DNA of 57,132 bases from positions 1 to 57,132 of the IMG/VR virus record IMGVR_UViG_3300048917_000273. The stretch is one strand, 5' to 3'. Within the stretch, counting starts at the first letter, position 1. Each line of letters starts with the position of its first letter. Both the position numbers and the translations under genes were made by a program. The DNA is from a virus. This document shows, piece by piece, positions 26,009 through 49,155 of this stretch. Below the pieces are notes generated by a model. The model was not told where the DNA came from and did no database searches. It saw only the letters and a program-made list of their open reading frames with translations.

Positions 26009-26024
26009 GTCCCGAGGTTGGGAC
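26009..26024. repeat. 16-bp palindrome copy (arm variant)
   Basis: GTCCCGAGGTTGGGAC. It sits exactly between the divergent -35 boxes at 25982-25987 and 26040-26045. Confidence 0.85.
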
Positions 26025-26039
26025 ACCTGCGGCGGCCGG

Positions 26040-26076
26040 TTGACACGGTCCCAGCTAGGGCATAGAGTTCTCCTAG
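26040..26076 (+). promoter_or_regulatory. rightward promoter PR1
   Basis: TTGACA, a 17-nt spacer, then TAGAGT (26063-26068). CTAGG (26055-26059) and CCTAG (26072-26076) flank the -10. Confidence 0.65.
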
Positions 26077-26137
26077 TTGTTCAGCCAAACGGGCTGAGCG
26101 TCGGACGCCGCGAGTGCGGCGGAATGGAGCGGTTCAG

Positions 26138-26278
26138 ATGGAACGACGTACACGCCTGGTGCCGAATTGGCAGGGCATCGGAACCTGGTGCCTGATCCTG
26201 GCGGCCGTGGCGCTCGCCGTCGCCGCCGCATATGTCCCGGCGATGGTTGCCCGGGCGGCCGTGGGGTGCGGCGCATGA
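26138..26278 (+). CDS. small membrane protein (46 aa)
   Basis: Hand translation: MERRTRLVPNWQGIGTWCLILAAVALAVAAAYVPAMVARAAVGCGA. ATGA overlap with the next gene. It is below the ORF-track cutoff. Confidence 0.4.
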   Translation: MERRTRLVPNWQGIGTWCLILAAVALAVAAAYVPAMVARAAVGCGA

Positions 26279-26763
26279 GCGCGCGTCGGCGGTCGACACA
26301 CGTTCCCGTGTCCCGACGTTGGGACGCGGCCGTAGCCGCGACCGTAGGCGCGTCCATCGTGGCGCTGATCACGGGCGGCGCGCTGGTTGCGGCGGGCGGA
26401 CACGCTGCCGAACCGGCCGCGGCCGCGCACGTCGTGAGCGTGCCGGGCGGCGCGTCGGACGCGCTCCGGATCCGACACACGGCACCCGTCCCGGATGCCG
26501 CGCCGCGCCCCGCTAAAGTGGCGCGGTTCACCCCGGACGCGCCCCGCGTGGCACCCGTCCCGAACCTGACCGGCGCGCTGGTGCCATGCACGTCGGAGGA
26601 TGCACCCGGCCCGTGCTACTGGGACGCCGGCACGGCCGGTAACGGCGTGGGCACGTCGTGGCTGGCCTGGCACGGCCGCGTGTGGTACCCGATCCCGCAT
26701 GGCGACACCAGCGTTACGTTCCGCGGCGTGACGTACTGGGACAGTGGCACGGCGTCGGAGTGA
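26275..26763 (+). CDS. signal-anchored/secreted protein
   Basis: ORF 26167..26763 frame, from ATG 26275 (MSARRRSTHVPVSRRWDAAVAATVGASIVALITGGALVAAG...). Cys/Trp-rich C-terminus. Confidence 0.65.
   Translation: MSARRRSTHVPVSRRWDAAVAATVGASIVALITGGALVAAGGHAAEPAAAAHVVSVPGGASDALRIRHTAPVPDAAPRPAKVARFTPDAPRVAPVPNLTGALVPCTSEDAPGPCYWDAGTAGNGVGTSWLAWHGRVWYPIPHGDTSVTFRGVTYWDSGTASE
26310..26325. repeat. 16-bp palindrome copy (arm variant)
   Basis: GTCCCGACGTTGGGAC. Coding, read as SRRWD. Confidence 0.85.
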
Positions 26764-26770
26764 CGTACGG

Positions 26771-26799
26771 CAGGCCGCGGCGCATGTCGTCGCGGCCTG
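26771..26799 (+). terminator. hairpin after 26275..26763
   Basis: CAGGCCGCG, an 11-nt loop, then CGCGGCCTG. It lies immediately before the PR2 -35. Confidence 0.5.
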
Positions 26800-26800
26800 C

Positions 26801-26837
26801 TTGACACGGTCTGAGCTAGGCCGTAGTTTGTACCTAG
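26801..26837 (+). promoter_or_regulatory. rightward promoter PR2
   Basis: TTGACA, a 17-nt spacer, then TAGTTT (26824-26829). CTAGG at 26816-26820 and CCTAG at 26833-26837. Confidence 0.65.
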
Positions 26838-26863
26838 TTGATCCGCCCGGGTCGACAGTGAGC

Positions 26864-26879
26864 GTCCCAAGGTCGGGAC
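26864..26879. repeat. 16-bp palindrome copy (arm variant)
   Basis: GTCCCAAGGTCGGGAC. It lies between PR2 and ATG 26896. Confidence 0.8.
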
Positions 26880-26895
26880 AGATTGTGAGGATGAC

Positions 26896-27123
26896 ATGAG
26901 CACCTACACTTCCACCGATGAGACCCTGATCGGCGAGACACCCGAACGCATGACCGGCGCCGAGCGCCGGGCGCACCGCCGCATGGCCGACGCTGAACGC
27001 CACCTCATCGCGGTGCTGACGTGGGGCACTGACGAACCGCCCACGGCCGCCGCCGTCGACGCGGCCGAAGCGCGATGCAACCGCGCATACCAAGTGTGGC
27101 GGCGGGCATGCGGGGCGCGCTGA
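26896..27123 (+). CDS. hypothetical protein
   Basis: ORF track, 75 aa, with a GAGGATGAC SD. Confidence 0.65.
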   Translation: MSTYTSTDETLIGETPERMTGAERRAHRRMADAERHLIAVLTWGTDEPPTAAAVDAAEARCNRAYQVWRRACGAR

Positions 27124-27140
27124 TCGCCGCCGCCGTGTGC

Positions 27141-27161
27141 GGCCAGGCATCCGGCCTGGCC
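27141..27161 (+). terminator. weak hairpin
   Basis: GGCCAGG-catccgg-CCTGGCC. Confidence 0.3.
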
Positions 27162-27254
27162 GCCGCGGCCGCCCGCGTGGCGTGGCGCCGAGTCCGGCAT
27201 CCCCGGCTGCCAGCCAGCCAGCCCAGTCGGGCCGCCGCCCGTCCCCGCCCGGCT

Positions 27255-27397
27255 GGTCAATGAAGATCGCTGCCCGGCCACCCGTCGGTCAATGAAGATC
27301 AGCCAGCCCCCGCGGCCGTGGTCAATGAAGATCGCGGTCGCGGGCTGGTCAATGAAGATCGGCTGTCCCAACCCTGGGACGCCGGTCAATGAACATC
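27255..27397 (+). repeat. iteron-like array: 5 direct copies of GGTCAATGAAGATC (last copy GGTCAATGAACATC)
   Basis: Copies at 27255-27268, 27287-27300, 27320-27333, 27347-27360 and 27384-27397, spaced 32, 33, 27 and 37 bp. The array is intergenic and AT-richer than its surroundings. Confidence 0.9.
27365..27380 (+). repeat. 16-bp palindrome copy
   Basis: GTCCCAACCCTGGGAC. It lies between iterons 4 and 5, 31 nt before ATG 27412. Confidence 0.9.
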
Positions 27398-27411
27398 GAA
27401 AGGAATCCCTG

Positions 27412-27759
27412 ATGAGCACCGAAAAACAGATCGCCGCTGATGTGGCCCGAGGACTGTACGCCGACGGCGTCATCGGCCTGCGAGCCATGCGCCCAGTGAG
27501 GGCTGCTGTCGAGCGAGCACTCAAGGAAGATCGAGCACAGCGTCCCAACGTTGGGACGGATGCTGCCGAAGAGGCGGCCGTCGACGAGGAGATGCTGTCG
27601 TCCGCCCAGTGGGTGGAGCGCACCGGCATCCGCATCCTCGACCCGGACGGCTGGCCGCGCAACGAGTTCGTCGCCGCATGGGAGAAGCCCATCACCCGCG
27701 CCGAGTTCATGGCACGAGCAGCGCTGTCCACCACCTGGGATCCGGAGGCCGCTCAATGA
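27412..27759 (+). CDS. hypothetical protein
   Basis: ORF 27292..27759 frame, from ATG 27412 with a CGAAAGGAATC SD block. The upstream part of the listed ORF is the iteron array. Confidence 0.7.
   Translation: MSTEKQIAADVARGLYADGVIGLRAMRPVRAAVERALKEDRAQRPNVGTDAAEEAAVDEEMLSSAQWVERTGIRILDPDGWPRNEFVAAWEKPITRAEFMARAALSTTWDPEAAQ
27542..27557. repeat. 16-bp palindrome copy
   Basis: GTCCCAACGTTGGGAC. Coding, read as RPNVGT. Confidence 0.9.
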
Positions 27760-28055
27760 AGACTCCCGAGCAGATCGCTGAGGAGATCGTTGCCCGCCAC
27801 GCAGACCTGACCCTCGACGACCTCGGCCTCGCAGCCGAGAGCATGATCGTCGAGGCGATCCATGCTGACCGTGCACAGATGAACGAGCCGGAGGACACAG
27901 GCCCCGGGAGCGGCGACCTCTGCGTGCTCGTTTCCACATTCACCGTCGAGCACTACCGATGTGACGAGTATGCCGACGGCACCAGAACAAGTTCGATCGA
28001 CGGCCATGTCGTCGTCCCGCCCAAGCCGGGCGCACTGAAGGGATTCAACCGATGA
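27756..28055 (+). CDS. hypothetical protein
   Basis: ORF 27609..28055 frame, from ATG 27756 (ATGA overlap). Confidence 0.7.
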   Translation: MKTPEQIAEEIVARHADLTLDDLGLAAESMIVEAIHADRAQMNEPEDTGPGSGDLCVLVSTFTVEHYRCDEYADGTRTSSIDGHVVVPPKPGALKGFNR

Positions 28056-28504
28056 AGATCCACAGCGACACGCTGACCCACGCTGACATCGCCGACGCCA
28101 CCCGTGCGGCGGGGATGACCGGCGTCTACACCGCGAACGAGTTCGAGCGCGGCTCCCGCTCCCGTGACCACGGCTTCGAGGTCACGCTGCGCGGGACGTC
28201 GGGCCGCCGTCCCAATCCTGGGACAGGGGGCCGCGACTACGATCCGGACGAGCGTGCTGCCACCTGGGACGAGTGGGGCATGTTCATCCACGCCCTGTTC
28301 GAGCGGGATCCCGAGGCGATCGTCGGGATGTACGCCAGCCAGTCGGCGTTCGATGCCTTCACCTGCGGACGCTTCAGCCACCTGACTGCGGACCATCAGC
28401 ACCGCAACCACCGCTGGTCGTTCGACTTCGTCGACCGCCGCCTGGCCTGCAAGTGCGGCGCAGTGCAGGACCGCGCCGCCGCACTCTTGCCTACGCTTGA
28501 CTAA
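28052..28504 (+). CDS. hypothetical protein
   Basis: ORF track, 150 aa, with an ATGA overlap. Confidence 0.75.
   Translation: MKIHSDTLTHADIADATRAAGMTGVYTANEFERGSRSRDHGFEVTLRGTSGRRPNPGTGGRDYDPDERAATWDEWGMFIHALFERDPEAIVGMYASQSAFDAFTCGRFSHLTADHQHRNHRWSFDFVDRRLACKCGAVQDRAAALLPTLD
28209..28224 (+). repeat. 16-bp palindrome copy
   Basis: GTCCCAATCCTGGGAC. Coding, read as RPNPGT. Confidence 0.9.
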
Positions 28505-28513
28505 CCATCCAGT

Positions 28514-28529
28514 GTCCCAACCCTGGGAC
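28514..28529 (+). repeat. 16-bp palindrome copy
   Basis: GTCCCAACCCTGGGAC. Intergenic, 22 nt before ATG 28552 and followed by CGAAAGGGAATCGC. Confidence 0.9.
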
Positions 28530-28551
28530 GCACTCATCGAAAGGGAATCGC

Positions 28552-28752
28552 ATGATGCGCTTCATCGCACTGCACAACCACGTCGGAGGTGGGCTCGTGT
28601 TCGTGAACATGGCCACCATCCGCACCATCGTTGACTCGCCGACCGGCGGATCGCTCATCACCATCGGCGCGACGGTGCCGCTGAAGGTCAAGGAAGACTC
28701 GGGCCAGGTCTTCACCATCATGCGCCAGGCATCCGAGACGGAGGGACTGTGA
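28552..28752 (+). CDS. hypothetical protein
   Basis: ORF track, 66 aa. Confidence 0.7.
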   Translation: MMRFIALHNHVGGGLVFVNMATIRTIVDSPTGGSLITIGATVPLKVKEDSGQVFTIMRQASETEGL

Positions 28753-29141
28753 TGGCCGCGCTCAAGATCGAGCCGCGCGTCGGCGACACGGTACTGCTCA
28801 CGCAGAGCAACGGCGTTACCGTGAAGGGGCCCATCACCGGGCTCAGCCGCCAGGCGCTCACGCTTGGCAATGGCGCGTACGAGAGCACGGCGGTGCCCAC
28901 CGACTGCATCGTCACCGTCGAGATCCTGGAACGGGCGAAGCGTCCGCTCCCCACCAAGCCGGGCATCTACGTCTCGGCTGGCGCTGACGCCCTCCACATG
29001 GCCCGCCTGTTCCGGCTCGATGCTCTCGGCCATTGGTCTGAGCCTGACGCCCCAATCAGCGAGAGCCGCGCGCTGGCCATCGTCAAGACGATCCACCGGG
29101 AGTTCGGACTCATCCGTCTGGCGAAGGAGACGGAGCAGTGA
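28749..29141 (+). CDS. hypothetical protein
   Basis: ORF track, 130 aa. GTG at 28749 or ATG at 28752 overlaps the upstream stop. Confidence 0.7.
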   Translation: MMAALKIEPRVGDTVLLTQSNGVTVKGPITGLSRQALTLGNGAYESTAVPTDCIVTVEILERAKRPLPTKPGIYVSAGADALHMARLFRLDALGHWSEPDAPISESRALAIVKTIHREFGLIRLAKETEQ

Positions 29142-29503
29142 CCGTCACGACCGCCGAGATCCTGGCATCCATCGACGCCGACACGCCGCTCGCCGAACTG
29201 GTCGACGTCGTGATCCGCAAGCTGCGCACCGCAGAGCTGCCCGAACTGGTCAAGGAAGAAGTGACCGACGATGGTGAGACGTACTGGGCACTGCGCTGCC
29301 CGGTCTGCGAGGAACTGGTCAGCGACTCCGACGATCTCTACACGGTCGACTTCGCCGAGCGCTGGTCATCCGTGACGCCGCGCGACGAGGACTGGGTCGA
29401 GGTGTCGGAGGGCGACTCGACGTTCGACGGCGCGTACTACCTGCACGACAGGGGTCCGCGCCACCTGGTCCGTCTGCCCGACGGGTGGACGGAGGAGTGG
29501 TGA
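29138..29503 (+). CDS. hypothetical protein (CPVC motif)
   Basis: ORF track, 121 aa, with a GTGA overlap. Confidence 0.7.
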   Translation: MTVTTAEILASIDADTPLAELVDVVIRKLRTAELPELVKEEVTDDGETYWALRCPVCEELVSDSDDLYTVDFAERWSSVTPRDEDWVEVSEGDSTFDGAYYLHDRGPRHLVRLPDGWTEEW

Positions 29504-29688
29504 GCGCGCTCGCCGTCCGCTGCCCGTCGTGCAATTCGGCGCCGGGCATGCTGTGCACCCAGCCTGACAGTCGCTCACGCCACGTCGTGACGCGAACCCA
29601 CTTCGTCCGCGAGCACCTCGCTGACGACATCGAGAAGGGGCGCGTGATCAACGCGCCGACGATCAGTCCCAGCCTTGGGACAGAGTAG
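29500..29688 (+). CDS. small Cys-containing protein
   Basis: ORF 29485..29688 frame. GTG at 29500 gives a GTGA overlap after GGAGGAG. The start is uncertain (alternatives 29485 and 29497). Confidence 0.55.
   Translation: MSALAVRCPSCNSAPGMLCTQPDSRSRHVVTRTHFVREHLADDIEKGRVINAPTISPSLGTE
29666..29681 (+). repeat. 16-bp palindrome copy
   Basis: GTCCCAGCCTTGGGAC. It occupies the last codons of 29500..29688 (SPSLGT), 16 nt before ATG 29698. Confidence 0.9.
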
Positions 29689-29697
29689 GAGAACGAC

Positions 29698-30027
29698 ATG
29701 TTCATGGTCATGCGAATCGACGAGAACGGCGTGCCGACGGGCACCGCGTGGGATGCGTTCTACAAGCCCGACAAGGCGGCGGCGGAGGCCGACCGCCTGA
29801 CGGCGCTCGATATGGGTACCGGGATCGGCGAGCACTGGAAGTTCAAGGTCATCCCCGTGCGAGACATCCTCGACCTGGCCGACCTGGTGCAGAACGCATC
29901 ATTCCAGGGTGACGGGCTGGGCTACCGCGCCAGCCTCGGGGAACTCTCATCGAAGATCCGCGAGGAGTACTGGAAGCGGCCGCTTCGATGGGTGCGTCCC
30001 AACGTTGGGACGGAGGCCCAGTCGTGA
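29698..30027 (+). CDS. hypothetical protein
   Basis: ORF track, 109 aa, with an AGGAGA SD. Confidence 0.75.
   Translation: MFMVMRIDENGVPTGTAWDAFYKPDKAAAEADRLTALDMGTGIGEHWKFKVIPVRDILDLADLVQNASFQGDGLGYRASLGELSSKIREEYWKRPLRWVRPNVGTEAQS
29996..30011. repeat. 16-bp palindrome copy
   Basis: GTCCCAACGTTGGGAC. It occupies the last codons of 29698..30027 (RPNVGT), 12 nt before GTG 30024. Confidence 0.9.
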
Positions 30028-30638
30028 GCAAGGGCACGCCGATCACCGACGAGTCATGGATCGAAACGATCCGCGAGGCCACGTTCGAGGCCGCCACCGA
30101 GGGCGACGACCAATCACCCATCGGCTGCTTCTGGAAGATCGACTCGTTCGGTCGGCCGATGGTGGCCCGACAGGACAGCTTCGGCATCTTCTCGACCTCC
30201 GCATTCGACACCGAGGAGGAGCGCGACCGCTACTTCCAGGATCTGCTCAACGCCTACTGGCAGTGGGATGCGGAGGTATCGGACGAGGATCTGGTCGCCG
30301 CGATCAACGGCTTCCGCGAGGCGCTGCTGTTCACGGCCGACCAGACCTGGCCGGACGACGTCGTGCCGTCGTGGAGTGCGGCCGCACAGCAGCAGATTAT
30401 CGACGAGGTCACCGAGTTCGTGACGTCGAACGCGCCGGAGATCCGCGAGTTCCTGGATGCCACCGGACATGAGTGGACGCAGGTCGGCATCGACTTCGCC
30501 TTCACCCGCAACCACGAGGGCGCCGGGTTCTGGGACCGTGGCGCTGGCGAGCCGGGCAAGGTGCTGACCGAGATGTCCCACCCGTGGGGCGAGGTCCGCG
30601 CCGTGCTCGGCGACGACGAAGAGATGGTCATCGAATGA
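30024..30638 (+). CDS. acidic hypothetical protein
   Basis: ORF 29988..30638 frame. GTG at 30024 with a GGAGG SD and a GTGA overlap. Strongly acidic composition. Confidence 0.7.
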   Translation: MSKGTPITDESWIETIREATFEAATEGDDQSPIGCFWKIDSFGRPMVARQDSFGIFSTSAFDTEEERDRYFQDLLNAYWQWDAEVSDEDLVAAINGFREALLFTADQTWPDDVVPSWSAAAQQQIIDEVTEFVTSNAPEIREFLDATGHEWTQVGIDFAFTRNHEGAGFWDRGAGEPGKVLTEMSHPWGEVRAVLGDDEEMVIE

Positions 30639-30859
30639 GCAACGAGAAAGTCAACGTCGTCCCGCCGCAGTGCATGTTCTGCAGCACGCCGCCGGAGAAG
30701 ATCACCGTCGACCTCGAGGCGTACGAGCGCTGGGTCGAGGGCGAACTGATCCAGGTGGCGTTCCCGGAGATGTCGGACGACGACCGCGAGACGCTCAAGT
30801 CCGGCATCCATGGTGCCTGCTGGCACGCCATGTTCGGATCGATGGAGGACGAGGAGTAA
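30635..30859 (+). CDS. hypothetical protein (Cys/His-containing)
   Basis: ORF 30473..30859 frame, from ATG 30635 (ATGA overlap). Confidence 0.65.
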   Translation: MSNEKVNVVPPQCMFCSTPPEKITVDLEAYERWVEGELIQVAFPEMSDDDRETLKSGIHGACWHAMFGSMEDEE

Positions 30860-31128
30860 TGCCGCGCTCGAAGGGCTGGCTCAAGGCTGACGCGCTGCGC
30901 ACGGCGTACATCCGTGAGCAGTACGCCACCATCGGTCCGGACGGCTGCCGTCACGTCGTCGAGTTGTACTGGGACGGGCAGCAAAACCAGTACGTGGTCA
31001 CGCAGCGTGACTACTCGGGGCCGCAGGAGATGCGGTTCAAGCACACCGACGTCCGCTTCTTGGAGAGCCAGCTGGGCGAGGCGCGCGAGTGCTTCACCGA
31101 GGCCGTCGCCGAGATCGAGTCCGCTTGA
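30859..31128 (+). CDS. hypothetical protein
   Basis: ORF 30670..31128 frame, from ATG 30859 (TAATG overlap). Confidence 0.65.
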   Translation: MPRSKGWLKADALRTAYIREQYATIGPDGCRHVVELYWDGQQNQYVVTQRDYSGPQEMRFKHTDVRFLESQLGEARECFTEAVAEIESA

Positions 31129-31164
31129 CACGGACTCACCACTAGGGTAGGGTTATACCCTAGT
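31125..31164 (+). promoter_or_regulatory. rightward promoter PR3
   Basis: TTGACA, a 17-nt spacer, then TAGGGT (31148-31153). A 9-bp inverted repeat, ACTAGGGTA (31141-31149) and TACCCTAGT (31156-31164), spans the -10. Confidence 0.6.
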
Positions 31165-31198
31165 CAAGCAACACCGGGGCATCCGCTCCACCGACACC

Positions 31199-31214
31199 GT
31201 CCCAACCCTGGGAC
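31199..31214 (+). repeat. 16-bp palindrome copy
   Basis: GTCCCAACCCTGGGAC. It lies 18 nt before ATG 31233 and is followed by CGCGAAGGGAATCGC. Confidence 0.9.
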
Positions 31215-31232
31215 ACCGCGAAGGGAATCGCA

Positions 31233-32240: not shown

Positions 32241-32252
32241 CCATCACCACAC

Positions 32253-32279: not shown

Positions 32280-32287
32280 ACTGATCC

Positions 32288-32303
32288 GTCCCAAGGTTGG
32301 GAC
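32288..32303. repeat. 16-bp palindrome copy
   Basis: GTCCCAAGGTTGGGAC. It lies 18 nt before ATG 32322 and is followed by GCGAAGGGAATCGC. Confidence 0.9.
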
Positions 32304-32450: not shown

Positions 32451-32451
32451 C

Positions 32452-34594: not shown

Positions 34595-34827
34595 TGTCCC
34601 AAGCTTGGGACGCCGACAATCCACGGTTCACCGTGGAGACGTACGAGGGCATGTTCACCGGCGTGCTCGACCGACAGCGCGACCTGTTCGCTTGGGTCCG
34701 TGAGGCGGTCGGCCATGACGGTCAGCCGACAGCGCAGGGCCGAGCCCAGCGCATGGCCGACCGGCTGAACTCGGGCGAGGACACCACGACCGGGTTCATA
34801 TGGGAGCAGATCCCCGACACGGACTGA
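34594..34827 (+). CDS. hypothetical protein
   Basis: ORF 34579..34827 frame, from ATG 34594 (TGATG overlap, GGGAGGAGGG SD). Confidence 0.7.
   Translation: MSQAWDADNPRFTVETYEGMFTGVLDRQRDLFAWVREAVGHDGQPTAQGRAQRMADRLNSGEDTTTGFIWEQIPDTD
34596..34611. repeat. 16-bp palindrome copy
   Basis: GTCCCAAGCTTGGGAC. It starts at the third base of start codon 34594 and is read as SQAWD. Confidence 0.9.
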
Positions 34828-35403: not shown

Positions 35404-35668
35404 CGAGTACCCCCTGCCCGACCCTGGCCGGGAGCGCTTCTGGCACGGAGTGCACAACCCGAGCAGCGTGAAGACGCCGCTCACCCTCGAGCTTCGCGAG
35501 CGCACCGTGGCCAACGCCAAGGCTGCTGTCACGTTCTCGAAGCTCATCGCCAAGCAGCCGACGATCGCCGACCCGAAGGCGGTCAAGGAAGCAGCTGACG
35601 AGATCCTCATCCGCGCCGAGCGGGTCGACGACTTCATCGGCATCCTCAAGGAAGGAGAGGCCGCCTGA
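35387..35668 (+). CDS. hypothetical protein
   Basis: ORF track, 93 aa, with a GGAAGGAAG SD. Confidence 0.7.
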   Translation: MTKTPDEYPLPDPGRERFWHGVHNPSSVKTPLTLELRERTVANAKAAVTFSKLIAKQPTIADPKAVKEAADEILIRAERVDDFIGILKEGEAA

Positions 35669-35943
35669 TGCCCACCCAGGATCTGCGCAAGATCACCCTG
35701 CCCAAGACGCTCGACAAGCGCGTGAAGCGGTACGCCGCGAAGCACGGCATGAGCGAGTCTGAGGTCATCCGCACCGCGATGACCCAGTTCGAGGTCGCCC
35801 GCTACCCGGCCGAGAAGCCGGAGATGGTGAGCAAGACCATCTACATCTCACCGCCCGAGTACGGCGCCTTCACCACGAAGGCACGCAAGTCCCACACCAC
35901 CATCCGCCACGCCCTCGAGATCGCCTTGGAGAACCTGCTTTGA
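35668..35943 (+). CDS. ribbon-helix-helix DNA-binding protein (possibly tandem RHH)
   Basis: ORF track, 91 aa. ITLPKTLDKRVKRYAAKHGMSESEVIRTAM is followed by a second similar unit, IYISPPEYGAFTTKARKSHTTIRHALEIAL. Confidence 0.7.
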   Translation: MPTQDLRKITLPKTLDKRVKRYAAKHGMSESEVIRTAMTQFEVARYPAEKPEMVSKTIYISPPEYGAFTTKARKSHTTIRHALEIALENLL

Positions 35944-36243: not shown

Positions 36244-36259
36244 GTCCCAACCCTGGGAC
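36244..36259 (+). repeat. 16-bp palindrome copy
   Basis: GTCCCAACCCTGGGAC. It lies 1 nt after the stop at 36242 and 6 nt before the terminator hairpin. Confidence 0.9.
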
Positions 36260-36265: not shown

Positions 36266-36304
36266 AGACCCCCGGCAGCCTGGTTCAACCAGGGCCGGGG
36301 GTCT
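36266..36304 (+). terminator. nested GC hairpin ending the first early operon block
   Basis: AGACCCCCGGC-ag-CCTGGTT-c-AACCAGG-GCCGGGGGTCT. Confidence 0.6.
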
Positions 36305-40942: not shown

Positions 40943-41370
40943 ACATCACCATCCGGGCACTGAAGATGGCGCCCCGCGTGGACGGAGGAGAGACGGACGG
41001 ATCCTTCTTCGCCGTGCTACCCGGCGCTGAGACCTCGGTCGAGATCACAGCCGACGGTATCGAAGACTCCGGCATCCTGACCACCGTGCTCGCTCACACG
41101 TTCGAGACGGCGGCCGCGCTGCGTCATCTTGCCACCGGCGAACTGCAGGCCGAGGGCGAGTGGGTCTCTGTCGACGAGCCGACACCCATGCCGGGCGTGA
41201 CGCCCGACTGGCAGCCCGAGCGTCCCAACCCTGGGACGGATGCCGACGCCAAGGTCGGCATCGACATCGAGGCCGTCGCCGACGCCATCAAGCACGGGCC
41301 GAAGCTCTCCCGCTACGAGCGCGAGTTCCTGACCACCGTCATCACCAGCCACTCCATCGACCGCTCCTGA
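40939..41370 (+). CDS. hypothetical protein
   Basis: ORF 40804..41370 frame, from ATG 40939 (ATGA overlap). Confidence 0.7.
   Translation: MNITIRALKMAPRVDGGETDGSFFAVLPGAETSVEITADGIEDSGILTTVLAHTFETAAALRHLATGELQAEGEWVSVDEPTPMPGVTPDWQPERPNPGTDADAKVGIDIEAVADAIKHGPKLSRYEREFLTTVITSHSIDRS
41222..41237 (+). repeat. 16-bp palindrome copy
   Basis: GTCCCAACCCTGGGAC. Coding, read as RPNPGT. Confidence 0.9.
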
Positions 41371-43040: not shown

Positions 43041-43483
43041 TGGCGCTGACCAAGGCGCAGATCGAGAAGATCGTCACGCAGGTGAAGGACACCCCTGACC
43101 GCGAGATAATCCTGCCCAAGCGCTACGCCTGGAAGGACCGCGAGCAGCCGTACATCTACGTCGACAGTCGACCGATGCCGCTGGTGCGCTACCTCTGGTG
43201 CGTCATCATCGGGCCGTGTCCCATTCCGGACGGCATGAAGCTGCGTCCCAAGGTTGGGACATCCCGGGCCAACGTGAACCCCTACCTGTGGGAGATCGTG
43301 CCGCAGGTGAAGCCAAAGCCGATCGGCCCGCGGCGCAACACGCTGGCCGACATCAACCGCGCGAAGACGACTTGCCCGAAGGGGCACGAACTCGTGCGCC
43401 GCAAGAGCGGCAAGCGGCTGTGCCTCGAGTGCCCGAGGGAATCCAAGCGCCAGTACCGCGAACGACAGAAGAGGGAATCGTGA
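43040..43483 (+). CDS. hypothetical protein with C-terminal zinc-ribbon (CPKGHEL..CLEC)
   Basis: ORF track, 147 aa. Confidence 0.7.
   Translation: MALTKAQIEKIVTQVKDTPDREIILPKRYAWKDREQPYIYVDSRPMPLVRYLWCVIIGPCPIPDGMKLRPKVGTSRANVNPYLWEIVPQVKPKPIGPRRNTLADINRAKTTCPKGHELVRRKSGKRLCLECPRESKRQYRERQKRES
43245..43260. repeat. 16-bp palindrome copy
   Basis: GTCCCAAGGTTGGGAC. Coding, read as RPKVGT. Confidence 0.9.
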
Positions 43484-45279: not shown

Positions 45280-46256
45280 CCAGCCAGGAACTCGTCGTCC
45301 AGTCCACCGCCTACAGTCGCGCCTCACTCGAGGAGCGTCAGCGCTACACCGCGGCGCTTGCCACCGCAGGCGACCTGCTGCCCGGCAGCATGCAGACCAT
45401 GCAGCGCGTCGACGGCCAGATGAAGAAGGTCGGCGACCGCGGCAAGGTGATGCTCATGGCGGAGACCGGCGACATGCTCGGCATCCACCCCATCGCCGCG
45501 CTCACCGGCGTGCACATCATCGAGGGCAAGCCGTCCATCTCGGCGAACCTGATGGGCGGCCTGGTGCGCAAGGCGGGCCACCGCCTCCGCGTCCGCACCG
45601 AGGGCAAGCTCGAGGACAAGACGCTCACCGCCACGGCGACGCTCGTGCGCAGCGACGACCCCGACTTCGAGTTCAAGGTCGTCTGGGACGTGGCCAAGGC
45701 CGAGCGCGCCGGGCTCTACCCCGGTAAGCCCAAGTCGAACTGGCAGACGTACACGGAGGCCATGCTCAAGGCGCGAGCGATCTCCGAGGTCATCCGCGAG
45801 GGTGCGCCCGACGTGCTCATGGGCGGCAACGTCTACACGCCGGAGGAACTCGGCGCGCAGGTCACCGAGCAGGGCGACCCGGTCGAGTACGAGGCCGCGC
45901 CGAGCGAGCCGCGCCCGGCCGTGCCGCCGCAGGAGAAGGTCGCTACGCCGATCGTCGACGAATCGACCGGCAACGCGGATGCCGCACAGGGATTCGCCGA
46001 CGCCGCGGCCGCCGCCGGGACGCGCGAGGACGTGCTCGAGATCTTCCGCCAGGCCAAGATGGCTGGCCAACTCTCCACGCTGATCTTCGTCGGCGACGAG
46101 GAACAGGAACTCGGGCAGTTCATCATCGGCATCGGACAGGCCATGGCCGTCGCCGAGACGGAGAACGGCGAGCCGATCCCCGACGAGGGTGAGCCCGTCG
46201 TCATGGACGAGGAGGTCGTCATCGCCGAGGTCGTCGAGGATGGCAGTGACTCGTGA
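45276..46256 (+). CDS. recT: RecT-family single-strand annealing protein
   Basis: ORF track, 326 aa. GIHPIAALTGVHIIEGKPSISANLMGGLVRKAGH. It is adjacent to the exonuclease. Confidence 0.8.
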   Translation: MTSQELVVQSTAYSRASLEERQRYTAALATAGDLLPGSMQTMQRVDGQMKKVGDRGKVMLMAETGDMLGIHPIAALTGVHIIEGKPSISANLMGGLVRKAGHRLRVRTEGKLEDKTLTATATLVRSDDPDFEFKVVWDVAKAERAGLYPGKPKSNWQTYTEAMLKARAISEVIREGAPDVLMGGNVYTPEELGAQVTEQGDPVEYEAAPSEPRPAVPPQEKVATPIVDESTGNADAAQGFADAAAAAGTREDVLEIFRQAKMAGQLSTLIFVGDEEQELGQFIIGIGQAMAVAETENGEPIPDEGEPVVMDEEVVIAEVVEDGSDS

Positions 46257-46549
46257 GCGATCGCATCCTCAATGTCCGGGTCTCCGAGGATGAGATGGCG
46301 AAGGTCGACGACCTCGCCGTGAAGATCGGGTCGACGCGGTCGGAGGCCGTGCGCTACCTCATCTTCCGCAACCTGCCGACGCCCATCGATCTCGACGAGG
46401 GTATCTGGCTGACGCGGTATCGCAACGATCCGCTCTCAGTGGGGGTCGACTTCTGGGCTGACGAGACGACAGCCCTGCGCGCGGCGAACAAAGACGAGAG
46501 TCTCATCGCCGAGCGGCATCCCGTCCGGCGGGCAGATGCCCGCGCGTAA
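46253..46549 (+). CDS. ribbon-helix-helix (CopG-like) protein
   Basis: ORF track, 98 aa. LNVRVSEDEMAKVDDLAVKIGSTRSEAVRYLI. Confidence 0.7.
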   Translation: MSDRILNVRVSEDEMAKVDDLAVKIGSTRSEAVRYLIFRNLPTPIDLDEGIWLTRYRNDPLSVGVDFWADETTALRAANKDESLIAERHPVRRADARA

Positions 46550-46739
46550 GACGGCGGCAGCCAAGGGCACCCCGGAGGTCTTCGAGATCGACGGGGTGCC
46601 CACCGCGGCCGGGCTCGCACGGATGGGCAGGGAGTACGCCTACCGCGTCGAGCGCGGCATCACCATCACGGCCAAGGGGCACGCGCTCCTCGGCAACATA
46701 CTCCGCGAGCGAGGTCTCGCACGAAGGGAATCACCATGA
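46536..46739 (+). CDS. hypothetical protein
   Basis: ORF track, 67 aa. Confidence 0.6.
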   Translation: MPARKTAAAKGTPEVFEIDGVPTAAGLARMGREYAYRVERGITITAKGHALLGNILRERGLARRESP

Positions 46740-47038
46740 AAGACACCATCACCGAGAGCGAACTGACCGCAATCGGCCGGAAATTCCGGAACGACCCGCG
46801 CGCCATGGACACTGAAGGCATCATGCGCTTCGCCTTGTCGGAGGTCGGCATCACCGTCGTCCCGGACCCGACCCCTGAACCGGAAGGCGACGTGATCGTG
46901 GTGGACAAGGACGGTGACGCATGGCTGCGCACTGGCTCAGGCTGGTTGAACGAGCGGACCGAGATCCAGCCGTGGGAGTGGGAGAACGTGATCTCCGAGT
47001 ACGGCCCCGTGAAGATCTACCGGGCGGAGGAGTCATGA
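46736..47038 (+). CDS. hypothetical protein
   Basis: ORF track, 100 aa. CGAAGGGAATC SD block and an ATGA overlap. Confidence 0.7.
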   Translation: MKDTITESELTAIGRKFRNDPRAMDTEGIMRFALSEVGITVVPDPTPEPEGDVIVVDKDGDAWLRTGSGWLNERTEIQPWEWENVISEYGPVKIYRAEES

Positions 47039-47592
47039 GCACCCTCGAAGACGAAGCCCGCGCCGAGGCTGCGCGACTGTATCCGCACGGGGATGGACTC
47101 GGGGAGAGCATCACCATTTCCCTCCGCAGTGCGTATCGCGCTGGTGCAGAGTTCGCCGCATCCCGACGTGAGCCTTCCGAGCCCCCGATCTATCTCGCAC
47201 TCGACCTGTGGATGGCGCTTGGCATGGACTCGCGCGGATTCGATGGCTACTACGAGCGCAACGGGTGGGCAACGACATGGTCAGTCCTGCTGGATGCTGT
47301 GCGAACTGCCGACCACTGCGAAATGCCCATCACCATGGACGAAGACTGCGTGCTCCGAACCGGTCACATCGGGCCGCACATGGGTCCGAGCGACGTCGGT
47401 TCATCCGAGCCGCTACCTCGCGTCCCCGAGCCGTCCGACACCGACGAGCGCGAGTGGGAGTACACCGCGCGTCCGGATCGCTCGTACACGTACATTTCGC
47501 TGGCGCGCATCCGCGACGCTCATCCGACACCCGAGAGGGTCTACCGTCGGCGCAAGGCTGGTCCGTGGGAGGTGGTTCCCGATGCCGAGTGA
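47035..47592 (+). CDS. hypothetical protein
   Basis: ORF 46921..47592 frame, from ATG 47035 (ATGA overlap). Confidence 0.7.
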   Translation: MSTLEDEARAEAARLYPHGDGLGESITISLRSAYRAGAEFAASRREPSEPPIYLALDLWMALGMDSRGFDGYYERNGWATTWSVLLDAVRTADHCEMPITMDEDCVLRTGHIGPHMGPSDVGSSEPLPRVPEPSDTDEREWEYTARPDRSYTYISLARIRDAHPTPERVYRRRKAGPWEVVPDAE

Positions 47593-47755
47593 CGAGGAGC
47601 GCGAGGCGCTGCGACAGGTGGTCTACGAGAGCATCGAGCGGTGGGCTGACTTGCTCCCCACGCCCGATGTCGCGGGCTACGTCGCCGACGCGGTTGCGAA
47701 CGCTGGCTTCCATCGTCAGGGGCAGATCACCGAGGCGAGTCGGGGTGAGGACTGA
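47582..47755 (+). CDS. small hypothetical protein (57 aa)
   Basis: C-terminal part of ORF 47093..47755, from ATG 47582 (MPSDEEREALRQVVYESIERW...). Confidence 0.5.
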   Translation: MPSDEEREALRQVVYESIERWADLLPTPDVAGYVADAVANAGFHRQGQITEASRGED

Positions 47756-48219
47756 TGGGTTCGCTCATTGACCTAACCGGGCGACGCTTTGGAAAGCGCG
47801 TCGTCATCCGACGAGAGTATCTCCCCGGCGAAGCCGGTAAGACTCACTGGCTCGTGCGATGCGACTGCGGACGCGAAGACGTGGTGCAGGGAGGGCACCT
47901 GCGCCGCGGGGAGCGTGCGCAGCAGTGTCGCGACTGTCAGGGGCTCGCCAGGAGACAGGAGATTCCCCGGTACCTTAGGGCGCACGATCGCGTGCGACGA
48001 GCACGCGGCAACGCCAGCGACTACCCCTGCGTGGAGTGTGCCGCTGGCGCTCGTGAGTGGGCGCTGATGCACGAGACGACCGAGCGTCTTACCGGCGAGT
48101 GCAATGGAGTCGTCATGGAGTACTCGCGCAACGTGGATGACTACCAGCCGATGTGCACGCGGTGCCACCGGAGGTACGACGCTGACCATCGAGCCGCAGA
48201 GGAGGCACGCCGTGGCTGA
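47755..48219 (+). CDS. HNH-type endonuclease-like protein
   Basis: ORF track, 154 aa. Multiple CxxC pairs and YQPMCTRCHRRYD. Confidence 0.6.
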   Translation: MGSLIDLTGRRFGKRVVIRREYLPGEAGKTHWLVRCDCGREDVVQGGHLRRGERAQQCRDCQGLARRQEIPRYLRAHDRVRRARGNASDYPCVECAAGAREWALMHETTERLTGECNGVVMEYSRNVDDYQPMCTRCHRRYDADHRAAEEARRG

Positions 48220-48640
48220 GCAGGATGCCGCGCTCGTCGCAGAACTGCGTATCGAAGAGGCGGAGACCTACGAGGGCTCCATCTACAGCCGTGCCGCCGA
48301 CACCATCGAAGCCCAGGCCAAGGAGATCTCCGACCTCGAGGACTGGGTGATCCGCACGGGCGACATGCTGTCCGCGATCGTACGCATCTGCCGGGGAGAC
48401 CCGCCATCGCTCACGTCGTGGTCTACGCATGACGCGGTGGATCAGGTGCAAGCGCTGCGCGAGCGCGTCAAGAAGGCCGAGCAGGAGCGTGACGCCTACG
48501 CCGCGCAACTTGAAGCCGTGCGCGGGTTCTGCGACAAGGCGCTCGACGTCAAGGCCGCGGGGTCTGACGAAGGTGAGACAGCGATGGCCGCACTGGCCGC
48601 CGTAATCAAGCGGGAAGCACTGGGAGAAACATACTCATGA
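48212..48640 (+). CDS. coiled-coil hypothetical protein
   Basis: ORF 48104..48640 frame. GTG at 48212 with a GAGGAGG SD. Confidence 0.6.
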   Translation: MAEQDAALVAELRIEEAETYEGSIYSRAADTIEAQAKEISDLEDWVIRTGDMLSAIVRICRGDPPSLTSWSTHDAVDQVQALRERVKKAEQERDAYAAQLEAVRGFCDKALDVKAAGSDEGETAMAALAAVIKREALGETYS

Positions 48641-49155
48641 CCGACAGCGACGAGCGTCCCAACCTTGGGACAGAGAGCTACGGCGGAACACGAGGTTACT
48701 CGGCGGGCGCCAGCCAGGACGCGGCATACGCCGACCTGGTGAGCGGGATCACGAACAAGACCCAACGCTACGTGCTCATCATGGCGACGCAGGCTGGCGA
48801 GCGTGGCGTCACATCAGCCGAACTCGAGGAGACCGGCGGCAAGCTTCACCACGGTCGCGTCTCGAGCGCCCTCACGAAGATGCACATCGCAGGCCGCCTC
48901 GTGGCGCTCACGGAGCGCAGGAACCACGCCGGGGTATACGTGCTACCCGAGCACGTTTCAGGCCGCGAGACGCGCTCCTACCGCCGCCAGCTGCCGAAGC
49001 GCAGCGAGGGCATCATCGCCGAAGTGCTCTACGACCACCAGAACAACGGCGTCGACTACGGATACAACTGCGCCTGTGGGTTCATCCCGAGCAAGGGCAA
49101 CACCTACGAACAGCACGTCGCGCACGAGATAGTCGAGGCACTGACCGCGCCCTGA
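48637..49155 (+). CDS. winged-helix DNA-binding protein, last gene of the rightward arm
   Basis: ORF track, 172 aa. QRYVLIMATQAGERGVTSAELEETGGKLHHGRVSSALTKMHIAGRLV. Confidence 0.7.
   Translation: MTDSDERPNLGTESYGGTRGYSAGASQDAAYADLVSGITNKTQRYVLIMATQAGERGVTSAELEETGGKLHHGRVSSALTKMHIAGRLVALTERRNHAGVYVLPEHVSGRETRSYRRQLPKRSEGIIAEVLYDHQNNGVDYGYNCACGFIPSKGNTYEQHVAHEIVEALTAP
48656..48671 (+). repeat. 16-bp palindrome copy
   Basis: GTCCCAACCTTGGGAC. It covers codons 7-12 of 48637..49155 and is read as RPNLGT. Confidence 0.9.

Follow-up and report, generated by a model that had tools for sequence, protein, structure and literature searches.

A lineage-specific palindrome family in the early operon of a lytic-type actinobacterial phage, with features of a DNA operator

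The genome of a lytic-type actinobacterial phage (IMG/VR virus record IMGVR_UViG_3300048917_000273, positions 1-57,132, the whole 57-kb stretch analysed and referred to below as the window) contains a family of GTCCCA-N4-TGGGAC dyads, with 15 exact and five one-mismatch copies, which is real and far beyond chance. Judging from the sequence patterns, we consider it somewhat better than an even bet that the dyad is a double-stranded DNA operator, consisting of two 6–7 bp half-sites (Y-GTCCCA-A) read by a sequence-specific DNA-binding protein that acts as a symmetric dimer and is most probably encoded by the phage. A direct repeat of 127 bp at the termini shows that the window is a complete genome of ~57.0 kb, and the label 'genome-wide', given to the family in the first-pass annotation, is therefore justified.

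A scan for exact GTCCCANNNNTGGGAC returned the 15 copies, compared to none in 100 dinucleotide shuffles, the control that the first-pass annotation had proposed, while allowing up to two mismatches gave 21 matches versus 3.3 expected; the single two-mismatch match, at 18528, is probably due to chance. The one-mismatch copies start at 26009, 26310, 26864, 30575 and 55464, and the mismatch-tolerant rescan recovered all 19 copies listed originally, as well as the degenerate one at 30575, each at the correct coordinate. Lone GTCCCA hexamers are not enriched (26 outside full sites versus a median of 44 for hexamers of the same composition), so the unit is the dyad and not the half-site. The concentration of copies in the early arm is also confirmed: 16 of them (17 with 30575) lie within 26009-48671, and 14 of the 20 within 26009-36259, a segment that makes up 18% of the window and covers the first 10 kb of the rightward early operon (binomial p = 5e-7). 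Apart from the copy at 26009, described below, the dyads (listed without strand) and the hairpin that follows one of them are:

26310..26325, one mismatch, 5' portion of the early transcript, a putative GTG start following after 33 nt at 26359
26864..26879, one mismatch (A·C in the sense RNA), ATG 26896 following after 16 nt
27365..27380, 31 nt upstream of ATG 27412, inside an array of TCAATGAAGATCG direct repeats
27542..27557, intragenic, translated R-P-N-V-G-T
28209..28224, intragenic, translated R-P-N-P-G-T
28514..28529, junction, 9 nt past a stop codon, ATG 28552 following after 22 nt
29666..29681, junction, 16 nt before ATG 29698
29996..30011, final codons of gene 29698-30027, GTG 30024 following after 12 nt
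30575..30590, degenerate copy GTCCCACCCGTGGGGC, intragenic, in a frame different from the other intragenic copies, of doubtful membership
31199..31214, junction, followed after 18 nt by the ATG of the DUF932 gene 31233-32240
32288..32303, junction, 18 nt before ATG 32322
34596..34611, 1 nt past a stop codon, overlapping the in-frame ATG 34594, 21 nt before GTG 34633
36244..36259, 1 nt past the stop of the last early-operon gene, the terminator hairpin following after 8 nt
36268..36304, plus strand, G+C-rich hairpin without a T tract, probable terminator of the immediate-early operon
41222..41237, intragenic, R-P-N-P-G-T, replication/recombination region
43245..43260, intragenic, R-P-K-V-G-T
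48656..48671, 19 nt inside gene 48637-49155, R-P-N-L-G-T
7244..7259, leftward structural operon, 3 nt past a stop and 50 nt before the next start
23195..23210, leftward operon, final codons of gene 23182-23574, the start of gene 22922-23185 following after 9 nt
55464..55479, one mismatch, inside the minus-strand gene 54659-55828

Ten of the 20 copies end 9–33 nt 5' of a called start codon, versus 8% of positions by chance (p = 1e-6), in agreement with the ten or so copies near starts counted originally, and those at 34596, 36244, 23195 and 29996 overlap a start or stop codon. The copy at 7244 forms with its flanks a full 18-bp palindrome. The copy at 36244 adjoins a strong hairpin, as had been described, and the 76-nt segment containing this hairpin folds at -47.7 kcal/mol (z = -6.2). 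The reading frame shared among intragenic copies results from coding constraints and carries no weight for the operator interpretation.

The control region at the head of the operon contains the following elements:

26009..26024, dyad copy GTCCCGAGGTTGGGAC, listed without strand, one mismatch, between the -35 boxes of P_L and P_R
26040..26068, plus strand, predicted rightward early promoter P_R, TTGACA-17-TAGAGT, matching the consensus at 10/12 positions
25959..25987, minus strand, predicted leftward promoter P_L, TTGACA-17-GACTAT, a consensus match with a weak -10, which would drive gene 25135-25908

The dyad thus lies between the two divergent -35 boxes, as first annotated, starting 21 nt past the end of the P_L box and ending 15 nt before the P_R box, and this copy is probably untranscribed; that both promoters are consensus matches only counts against the operator. 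P_L mirrors P_R, both having GCTAGGG in the spacer and CCTAGT downstream of the -10, and a lone GTCCCA half-site is found at 26048-26053, within the P_R spacer. All eight relatives in which the control region was recovered have at least one copy in the corresponding place, between divergent -35 boxes and thus upstream of the two predicted promoters; P_R counterparts in relatives read TTGACC-17-TAGACT/TAAGGT, and the P_L match is kept as TTGACA in six relatives. The distance from the site to the P_R -35 box varies between 5 and 24 bp across genomes and reaches 228 bp in L013, a variability easier to reconcile with a repressor or nucleation site than with a phase-dependent activator.

Nine metagenomic relatives bear dyads, each with its own version. 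GTCCCA-N4 is found in the window and L020, GTCCCA-N3 in L012, L018, L019 and L023, RTCCCA-N3 in L015, GTCTCAC-N-GTGAGAC in L013 and TGAGTCA-N3-TGACTCA in L021, while the Hyperion dyad is GATCAACC-NN-GGTTGATC. Within one genome the copies are identical at 12 positions and between genomes all of them change together, which requires a trans-acting reader co-evolving with its sites. The first-pass annotation had suggested a test of conservation in related phages, and three positions are indeed kept: upstream of the DUF932 gene (in 9/9 motif-bearing relatives, each with the dyad of its lineage), before the operon terminator (equivalents of 36244 in L012, L015, L018, L019, L020 and L023) and between the divergent early promoters.

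Could the dyads act in RNA instead? On the polycistronic early mRNA each would form a 6-bp stem with a 3–4 nt loop, which would cover the start codon or lie directly 5' to the Shine-Dalgarno sequence and be the target of a phage RNA-binding protein or endoribonuclease; this protein would either repress translation or cut the message into stable monocistronic units. T4 RegA, gp43 and MS2 coat protein are translational repressors of the former kind. We regard this explanation as unlikely, even though the positions of the copies speak for it: about half are tied tightly to ribosome-binding sites or start codons, as those of a translational operator would be, and this counts against the DNA operator. 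Relatives show the same spacing of 9–25 nt from dyad to start, even when the copy is inside the last codons of the upstream gene, and about eight copies in L021 contain ATG. The hairpin is predicted to form (~-9.7 kcal/mol) and to leave the ribosome-binding site free. The stem is constant while the would-be loop is N3 or N4, and both spacings can occur inside a single genome (L012 at 9403; L021 at 778 and 822); a hairpin would accommodate this easily, whereas a rigid dimer bound to the same half-site would not. Variants internal to the stem are five G·U versus two A·C, and two Hyperion copies have symmetric AATCAACC..GGTTGATT as the terminal pair, which would be compensatory in RNA and is another point against the operator.

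However, an RNA target does not explain the copy upstream of both predicted promoters, nor the conserved copy after the last operon gene, where no start codon follows, nor several copies deep inside genes. The would-be loop bases are moreover self-complementary in a lineage-specific way (A..T in the window and L020, C..G in L013, G..C in L019 and L023, C..G plus Y-R in Hyperion), and this would leave a loop of only 1–2 nt in RNA. In L015 positions 1 and 15 vary independently (A..T 7, G..C 5, A..C 3, G..T 3; Fisher p = 0.34), and the outer flanks are Y...R in 90–94% of copies and not complementary. Taking all variants together, the sense RNA would contain 7–8 G·U versus 9 A·C, that is, no wobble bias; the absence of G-U pairing at 26864, noted originally, holds as an A·C mismatch. 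The same dyad adjoins genes for ParB DNA-binding proteins in bacteria, and the window yielded no candidate for an RNA-binding protein or RNase. The centre ACCC occurs five times in the window and GGGT never, so the orientation bias reported earlier is present here, but it does not extend to relatives, as L012 has GGT and ACC both ways at junctions, and it carries no weight. The choice between operator and hairpin had been left undecided; because of the probably untranscribed copy, the symmetry extending past RNA pairing and the lack of G·U bias, the operator now appears better supported and we infer that recognition takes place at the DNA level. The half-sites are 9–10 bp apart centre to centre, a distance close to one helical turn and well matched to a dimer on one face of the DNA.

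The proteins of the window considered as readers of such an operator are:

25135..25908, minus strand, g27, 257-aa Ala-rich protein, divergent from the early operon
35668..35943, plus strand, g52, ribbon-helix-helix (RHH) protein, apparently tandem, RHH_1 24.1 bits versus a cut-off of 20.5
46253..46549, plus strand, g75, small RHH-like protein and weaker candidate, RHH_1 19.7 bits, just under the cut-off
24264..24704, minus strand, g26, weak winged-HTH match

The g27 motif GFSKSSIGRY resembles an HTH recognition helix, syntenic homologues exist in seven relatives and the terminator-like hairpin at 24912-24926 is apparently its own; searches against Pfam, PHROG and PDB gave no support for g27, and its AF2 model (pLDDT 58) has no fold match. 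g52, whose gene is the last but one in the motif-laden operon, is kept in most relatives. Against the operator, g52-type RHH proteins are also found in a motif-negative phage (L022) and g27 lacks family, structure or profile support. g26, which may be translated from a leaderless mRNA from the promoter match 24741-24712, is unlikely to read the dyad because among relatives it is present only in L012.

The dyad is not confined to this phage group: it is multi-copy in unrelated low-GC viral contigs, while control dyads are not, and in 53/120 bacterial loci (Clostridia, Paraburkholderia, others) a ParB-like gene is found no more than 8 kb from TGTCCCAASTTGGGACA, versus 0/269 control or other viral loci, with the control loci being viral and the bacterial ParB background an estimate, which weakens the comparison. 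Pfam identifies ParB_N, with or without HTH_ParB, at four dyad loci (L466, L515, L444, L476), and two viral contigs with multi-copy dyads (L044, L058) encode ParB-like proteins. In these bacteria, at least, the dyad is a protein-DNA site, which we count in favour of the operator. The phage dyad could also be a loading site of the parS/O_B type for a protein of the ParB/KorB family, either a cryptic, highly diverged phage protein or one from the host or a resident mobile element, which would slide or spread and so silence the early operon at long range or organise the phage DNA, rather than act as a classical site-bound repressor. The variable site-promoter distance fits a sliding or spreading protein, and S-K-S-x-I-x-R-Y in g27 resembles the recognition helices of the dyad-linked ParBs. 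The SopB site TGGGACCACGGTCCCA in F plasmid sopC uses the same hexamers, but in opposite relative order, so the binding geometry differs and we count this order against a loading site. In neither the window nor L012-L023 did we detect a ParB_N or ParB-HTH protein, the ParB-HTH profile does not match the g27 family (E > 9; hhalign probability 0.15%), and the different half-sites of L013, L021 and Hyperion argue for a phage-specific reader. A loading site is therefore, in our opinion, improbable.

More doubtful still is the proposal that a conserved host factor binds the sites, or that they serve mainly as short homologies for cassette exchange between co-infecting relatives, in analogy to the PeSL motifs of T4-type phages, with the regulatory appearance being secondary. 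The same half-site does occur in phages of 35–69% GC, relatives differ more in the motif-laden operon than anywhere else in the genome, a YqaJ exonuclease and RecT are among the phage's gene products, and ~30 bp, comprising the dyad and a conserved ribosome-binding site, are common to the junctions. However, close relatives differ in the half-site (GTCCCA, GTCTCA, GAGTCA), unlike the site of a conserved factor, and positions kept while the sequence turns over point to selection on function at each site. Recombination leaves the promoter-spacer copy and the perfect dyad symmetry unexplained, and the authors describing Cluster O mycobacteriophages saw no link between their 17-bp repeats and rearrangements.

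We return, then, to the operator. One dyad sits between the mirror-image P_L and P_R, and ~13 more are distributed over the 10 kb of the immediate-early operon as far as its terminator, most of them where a short gap separates a stop codon from the next ribosome-binding site. Their occupancy would shut down or tune this operon and the divergent gene 25135-25908, by action at the promoter region combined with roadblocking, bridging or spreading along the operon. That occupancy leads to repression, and which candidate protein is responsible, are guesses on our part. A promoter scan of the window detected no promoters at the internal sites, where an effect of binding is thus speculative, a further point against the operator.

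The family is not a new kind of element but a new member of a described and unexplained class of repeats, which the first-pass annotation had missed: Microbacterium Cluster EG phages, the nearest cultured relatives, have published 18-bp inverted repeats in the same position, with no assigned function, and for the 17-bp repeats of Cluster O the authors predicted dimeric DNA-binding proteins. The proposed roadblocking, bridging or spreading along the operon is modelled on KorB of plasmid RK2 or the L5 repressor at its stoperators. The term 'stoperator-like', used originally, holds as an analogy only, since the sites in the window are symmetric rather than oriented and no repressor or integrase was found there.

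The palindrome family picked out by eye in the first-pass annotation withstands a shuffled control: an exact scan of the window for GTCCCANNNNTGGGAC found 15 copies, against none in 100 dinucleotide-preserving shuffles. When up to two mismatches are allowed there are 21 matches against 3.3 expected, namely the 15 exact copies, five with a single mismatch (26009, 26310, 26864, 30575 and 55464, all of them variants listed in that annotation) and a match at 18528, which is probably due to chance. Outside full sites the half-site hexamers are not enriched (26 in the window, compared with a median of 44 for hexamers of the same composition) and therefore the repeated unit is the dyad.

The window has a G+C content of 67% and carries an exact 127-bp terminal direct repeat (1-127 is identical to 57006-57132), which identifies it as a complete phage genome; the repeat reflects either a circular assembly or a short direct terminal repeat, as in the Cluster EG Microbacterium phages (roughly 200 bp). 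Gene calls here are our own, made from codon usage, and they give two blocks, listed together with the features discussed below.

25908 down to 1, continuing through 57054 down to 49234, minus strand: block with terminase, portal, a 1069-aa gene, tape measure, tail genes, LysM lysin and holin
26359-49155, plus strand: block of early and replication genes
25959-25987, minus strand: predicted early promoter P_L
26040-26068, plus strand: predicted early promoter P_R
25135-25908, minus strand: candidate regulator gene g27
24264-24704, minus strand: weak winged-HTH protein gene
35668-35943, plus strand: ribbon-helix-helix (RHH) protein gene
46253-46549, plus strand: RHH-like protein gene

A strong hairpin at 36268-36304 divides the plus-strand block in two. 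The first part is an operon of 10 kb with about 25 small genes. Most of these are orphans, most lack a Pfam domain, and they include DUF932, DUF7178 and the RHH protein; the second part is a replication/recombination region with an HTH_36 protein, DnaB, SSB, YqaJ exonuclease and RecT. The portal is 40% identical to that of the Cluster EG phages. Megablast found no close cultured relative, distant blastn matched the DUF932 gene only, and IMG/VR scans with the DUF932 protein and with an exact ACCC copy of the dyad returned chance singletons only.

The distribution of the dyads is far from even. The interval 26009-36259, 18% of the genome, holds 14 of the 20 copies (p = 5e-7), and a called start codon lies 9-33 nt downstream of the copy end in ten of the 20 (p = 1e-6), with a mode of the dyad-to-start distance at 16-18 nt in the window and relatives alike. 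At a typical junction the stop codon is followed, after 1-10 nt, by the dyad and then, 0-8 nt further on, by a strong ribosome-binding site, often CGAAGGGAATC, and the ATG. Copy 26009 is flanked by a rightward TTGACA-17-TAGAGT match and a mirror-image leftward TTGACA-17-GACTAT match, and the copy at the operon end sits 1 nt past the last stop codon and 8 nt short of the terminator hairpin. Two copies lie at structural-operon junctions and seven or eight are intragenic. The idea that junction copies are promoters was rejected, given the gap of only 9-25 nt between dyad and start, the symmetry of the dyad and the lack of a conserved -10 box or a detected phage RNA polymerase.

The intragenic N4 copies all occupy one reading frame (12 of 12, encoding R-P-N/K-x-G-T; p = 6e-6). 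A peptide motif or an in-frame insertion was considered as the cause and rejected, as coding constraints suffice: the arms shun the frames GTC|CCA and TGG|GAC (Trp), and the N4 spacer then leaves a single frame for both. In the N3 genomes the intragenic copies occupy exactly the two frames that this rule allows. These data do show that the dyad is kept up against coding pressure, and the repeat family is real and under selection.

Other repeated elements accompany the dyads. The control region (25940-26090) has a mirror-image design in which each promoter consists of TTGACA, a spacer with GCTAGGG, the -10 box and then CCTAGT near the predicted transcription start, and the CTAGG/CCTAGT elements recur in relatives. 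A minus-strand promoter match GTGACC-18-TATAGT (24704-24741) stops 7 nt short of the ATG at 24704, which suggests a leaderless mRNA for the winged-HTH protein; a terminator-like hairpin with a T-rich tail (24912-24926) separates this gene from g27. The ribosome-binding region CGAAGGGAATC(GC) occurs six times against 1.5 expected (31216-31231, 32304-32319, 28535-28551, and at 40191, 45261 and 46722), with its AGGGAA Shine-Dalgarno predicted in the loop of a 4-bp hairpin (GCGA/UCGC). A second family, (GG)TCAATGAAGATCG, also has six copies, against 0.17 expected (27255-27400 and 27521-27533). Within a non-coding gap of 290 bp they follow one another at intervals of 27-37 bp, on both sides of the 27365 dyad, and another copy lies 8 nt upstream of the 27542 dyad; the array is iteron-like and may serve as an origin or as a further set of operators. 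Related TCAA(C/T)GAAGATC elements adjoin the dyads of the relatives L012, L018 and L023, while in L021 and in the Cluster EG phage Hyperion 'CTCAACGAA' directly follows the dyads.

Relatives were collected, over ±10 kb, as contigs encoding homologues of the DUF932 protein, and palindromes were searched de novo in each. Every relative with the architecture of the window has its own multi-copy dyad, with 9-27 copies apiece in the nine metagenomic relatives and half-sites of the forms GTCCCA, GTCTCA, GAGTCA and GATCAACC across the dyad-bearing genomes. The more distant DUF932 phages L022 and L024, which differ in architecture, have no multi-copy dyad.

Dyads of the metagenomic relatives (contig; dyad; copies).
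L012; GTCCCA-N3-TGGGAC; 13
L018; GTCCCA-N3-TGGGAC; 20
L019; GTCCCA-N3-TGGGAC; 14
L023; GTCCCA-N3-TGGGAC; 21
L015; RTCCCA-N3-TGGGAY; 16-17
L020; GTCCCAA-NN-TTGGGAC, as in the window; 9-10
L013, L014; GTCTCAC-N-GTGAGAC; 13-15 (L013)
L021; TGAGTCA-N3-TGACTCA; 25-27 in 11 kb

The first-pass annotation had proposed positional conservation in related phages as a check, and three positions are indeed kept while the sequence turns over. All nine relatives have a dyad 14-31 nt ahead of the DUF932 start. A second one follows the last operon gene, before a terminator-like hairpin, in six relatives as well as in the window (seven genomes), and the third separates the divergent -35 boxes wherever the control region of a relative was recovered (eight of eight). 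As separate observations, L013 has an insert of about 230 bp of GC-rich, repetitive GCGCGTGCGC-like sequence between the promoter-spacer dyad and P_R (4695-4920), and weak or faint LAGLIDADG matches in the L012 terminase (1-1351, 875 aa) and the L013 DnaB (15393-17642, 749 aa) suggest inteins or homing endonuclease insertions.

What would bind such a site? On balance, and judging from placement and symmetry, we favour the view that the dyad is a multi-site operator in double-stranded DNA, through which a dimeric regulator, probably encoded by the phage, acts on the immediate-early operon and the divergent gene. The alternative that the copies act in the mRNA, as hairpin operators for translation or processing, appears unlikely to us. 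In the window and eight relatives the conserved promoter-spacer copy is upstream of both promoters, which are predictions rather than mapped starts, and so should not be transcribed, while RNA-hairpin operators of the MS2, boxB or RegA type are transcribed in all copies. The innermost bases are self-complementary in a lineage-specific manner (A..T in the window and L020, C..G in L013, G..C in L019 and L023, C..G plus Y-R in Hyperion), with a chance of about 0.004 that four independent classes would all match, and in RNA such pairing would leave an impossible loop of 1-2 nt. The two arms vary independently at the terminal positions in L015, the outer flanks (Y...R) are not complementary, and arm spacing equals about one helical turn. 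Variant copies show no clear wobble bias overall (7-8 G·U against 9 A·C), with 5 G·U against 2 A·C at internal stem positions, and all of these counts are small. On the side of RNA stand the close coupling of the dyads with start codons and ribosome-binding sites, some copies even occupying the last codons of the gene upstream, the copies in L021 that contain the ATG itself, and a predicted hairpin that is stable and leaves the ribosome-binding site free; N3 and N4 spacers occur with identical arms, and two Hyperion copies have compensatory changes. Weighing both, we judge DNA recognition about three to four times likelier than RNA recognition.

For the operator reading, the first candidate binding protein is the product of g27. 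This divergent gene is read from the mirror-image promoter and appears to possess a terminator-like hairpin of its own; seven relatives keep it in synteny. The motif G-F-S-K-S-S-I-G-R-Y in its product looks like the recognition helix of an HTH and is altered in exactly the two relatives with other half-sites (SRGTVTRV in L013, SQSTVTRA in L021). The resulting match between putative helix and half-site (K..RY with GTCCCA, R..RV with GTCTCA, Q..RA with GAGTCA) is suggestive and is confounded by phylogeny. The g27 product has no Pfam or PHROG match, only a handful of homologues by word search and no sequence match in the PDB; its AF2 model has a pLDDT of 58 and no Foldseek match below E = 1, and hhalign comparisons with ParB and with the control-region protein of the viral scan locus L060 were negative, as was a ParB-HTH profile. 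The second candidate, the RHH protein, is over the Pfam threshold and conserved in the operon, and is also present in the motif-negative L022. Each chain apparently has two ribbon-helix-helix units (RKITLPK... and KTIYISP...), an arrangement kept in six relatives, and by this reading of its sequence the protein would be a single-chain pseudo-dimer. The RHH-like protein and the winged-HTH protein are weaker candidates; a likeness of STRSEAVRYLIFRNLP in the former to the ParB HTH is best taken for the usual 'SRSE' with which helix B of a ribbon-helix-helix protein begins. A search for a protein whose closest relative tracks the N4 spacer (the window and L020) gave no clear signal.

The dyad is found well beyond this phage family. 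At least 120 IMG/VR stretches matched the pattern GTCCCANNNTGGGACAGA, which included 'AGA', and among the matches listed 18 have at least two copies and 12 at least three, with multi-copy viral contigs split across loci in these counts and contigs of 35-51% G+C among them. Two composition-matched control dyads matched 41 and 97 IMG/VR stretches, none of them multi-copy (Fisher p = 5e-7), and the variant dyads of L021 and L013 are not multi-copy in single loci elsewhere. In the multi-copy viral contigs the copies are again mostly right upstream of a ribosome-binding site and ATG. In low-GC contigs a sigma-70-type promoter match, TTGACA-17-TATAGT, is preceded at about 12 nt by one copy and has an extra half-site by the -35 box, the same layout as at P_R of the window. 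Further multi-copy examples are L042, L044 and L061. The contigs L060, L090 and L129 carry 9-10 copies each and have one gene in common with Pelagibacter phage Greip and Roseobacter phage CRP-5; Greip, like Paschalis, is without the dyad. The marine contigs with this shared gene are L060, L090, L129, L059, L139 and L029 (all six 35-37% GC) and L042 (46% GC); they have 5-10 copies of TGTCCCAAGTTGGGACA at gene starts, and one L060 gene product belongs to the Mycobacterium phage L5 gp82 family (Pfam E = 1e-25).

In bacterial genomes TGTCCCAASTTGGGACA was found at no fewer than 120 loci, and among the matches listed 23 of 120 have at least two copies within 8 kb. A small ParB profile matches 53 of these 120 listed loci, all for the N3 dyad, and two viral multi-copy loci, against 0 of 269 control or other viral loci, the comparison set being viral and not bacterial. 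At the bacterial loci (L417-L536) TGTCCCAA(G/C)TTGGGACA adjoins ParB-family genes in Clostridia MAGs, Paraburkholderia and others, often as two or three clustered copies just up- or downstream of the gene (for example L466 at 5167, 5703 and 5902, L476 at 4520-4623, L444 and L515), and by its position looks like an undescribed parS-type site. Pfam ParB_N scores 98-100 bits in three proteobacterial loci (L466 and L444 from Paraburkholderia, and L515), and a Clostridia locus has ParB_N plus HTH_ParB. The dyad-ParB link in bacteria is an association of genes with the N3 dyad, and the window has an N4 spacer.

These loci raise the alternative that the dyad is a loading site of ParB/KorB type. By analogy, this lytic-type phage family would silence or organise its immediate-early operon through a clamp or spreading protein bound at parS/O_B-like dyads, which we regard as doubtful. 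Plasmid RK2 has 12 KorB operators through which KorB silences globally, and phage-plasmid N15 has dispersed SopB sites. Such systems share with the window a palindrome of 13-16 bp, dispersed copies and a variable distance to promoters, and their known readers are HTH dimers. They differ in that neither a ParB-family protein nor a ParA could be detected in the window and its relatives: a ParB profile run against six-frame translations of the window and L012-L023 gave nothing at E < 1e-4, and Pfam scans were negative too. Partition also makes no obvious sense for a lytic phage. Candidates for the clamp would be a cryptic and highly diverged protein of the phage, for instance the g27 product, or one supplied by a resident mobile element. 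In F plasmid sopC, SopB has the site TGGGACCACGGTCCCA (PMC3177203), which contains the same two hexamers as the dyad in the opposite relative order. Whichever protein reads it, this spread of matches is a strong lead and suggests that the GTCCCA dyad is a widely distributed protein-DNA site. On a broader reading, actinophages, pelagiphage-like marine phages and integrative or conjugative elements of Clostridia and Burkholderiales would share a widespread and uncharacterised family of regulators with GTCCCA(A)-N-(T)TGGGAC as its conserved operator; the presence of the dyad in unrelated marine phage contigs and beside bacterial ParB genes suggests such a family to be much wider than noticed so far.

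If the preferred operator reading is true, a family of lytic-type phages would control a 10-kb host-takeover operon via about 15 identical sites, a regulon packed into one transcription unit, and the dyad with its binding protein would be a compact, orthogonal repression module for high-GC hosts. Multi-copy dyads of actinobacteriophages (Clusters O and EG) have been on record for a decade without an assigned function or binding protein. The window and its nine metagenomic relatives provide a natural series of four half-site variants at conserved positions, and so material for finding the binding protein by covariation and for designing binding and reporter experiments.

How does the family compare with repeats already described? 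The stoperator likeness raised in the first-pass annotation holds only in part. The Cluster A stoperators, bound by the L5 gp71 repressor (properties in part as summarised in PMC4351075), are likewise dozens of copies of one short site, placed along operons in short intergenic gaps or over start and stop codons, with one site at the early promoter and a proposed block to elongating RNA polymerase. However, stoperators are asymmetric 13-bp sites oriented with transcription, whereas the site of the window is a perfect dyad, and in relatives the asymmetric centres face either way. What binds stoperators is a temperate phage's immunity repressor, and here neither an integrase nor a CI-like repressor was found among about 70 proteins scanned, nor prophage relatives in 185,579 genomes. 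The PeSL cassettes of T4-type phages each combine an early promoter with a stem-loop at an ORF boundary, and no sigma-70-like promoter was found at the internal junction copies of the window. The SAS and ESAS elements of Cluster K mycobacteriophages and Cluster EF Microbacterium phages (Pope et al., 2011, PMC3203893; PMC7302621) are also motifs repeated at the translation starts of a subset of genes, and ESAS are imperfect inverted repeats just upstream. SAS are asymmetric and include the ribosome-binding site and ESAS are weakly conserved, in contrast to the perfect dyad of the window, which is 5' of the ribosome-binding site and occurs also away from start codons. Microbacterium phage Merry (L016, PP763431.1) has at least 12 annotated 33-bp 'repeat_region' features (GCTAGACTATAGGTGTAAGCCAAACC...), all of which precede a start codon by 10-25 nt; being asymmetric and promoter-like, they were rejected as the same element and would, from their sequence, be a different solution at the same genomic position.

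The closest parallels are two classes of unassigned function. Cluster O mycobacteriophages carry more than 30 copies of the 17-bp dyad TGTTCGGNNNCCGAACA (Cresawn et al., 2015, PMC4351075), for which the authors predicted dimeric DNA-binding proteins with a role other than promoter control, noting both similarities to and differences from stoperators and SAS elements. As in the window, the arms are invariant (7 bp in Cluster O), the centre is variable (3 bp) and orientation shows no preference; the repeats are denser in the non-structural arm, about one third are intragenic and the phages are not obviously temperate. The lineage is unrelated, however, the sequence is another one, and the Cluster O repeats are not closely tied to translation starts (PMC4351075), whereas those of the window are. 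In Cluster EG Microbacterium phages the 18-bp inverted repeat GATCAACCNNGGTTGATC occurs 8-10 times in small gaps between genes, with a start codon 14-22 bp downstream; divergent EG genomes conserve the copies, which were likened to the Cluster O repeats (Jacobs-Sera et al., 2020, PMC7302621). In Hyperion, the one EG genome that we verified, GATCAACCNNGGTTGATC occurs in 8 exact and 4 variant copies, and the junctions read stop codon, 'cc', dyad, 'aga', ribosome-binding site and ATG. These phages are related to the window, with the same genome architecture and junction layout, a perfect multi-copy dyad in the arm transcribed opposite to the structural genes, and a repeat kept in sequence and position despite divergent flanks. 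The half-site is a different one, the arms are arranged as 8+2+8 in EG and as 6(7)+4(2)+6(7) in the window, which has about twice the copies, and intragenic copies and a copy between divergent promoters are features of the window not reported for EG. The window thus shares with EG many perfect repeats in short gaps near start codons, at positions kept in relatives, and its sequence (GTCCCA-N4-TGGGAC) is not the EG consensus; it therefore belongs to the same class and not to the same sequence family. Since the EG and Cluster O repeats are already described, the family of the window is a new member of this known, still unexplained class, in a form particular to its lineage.
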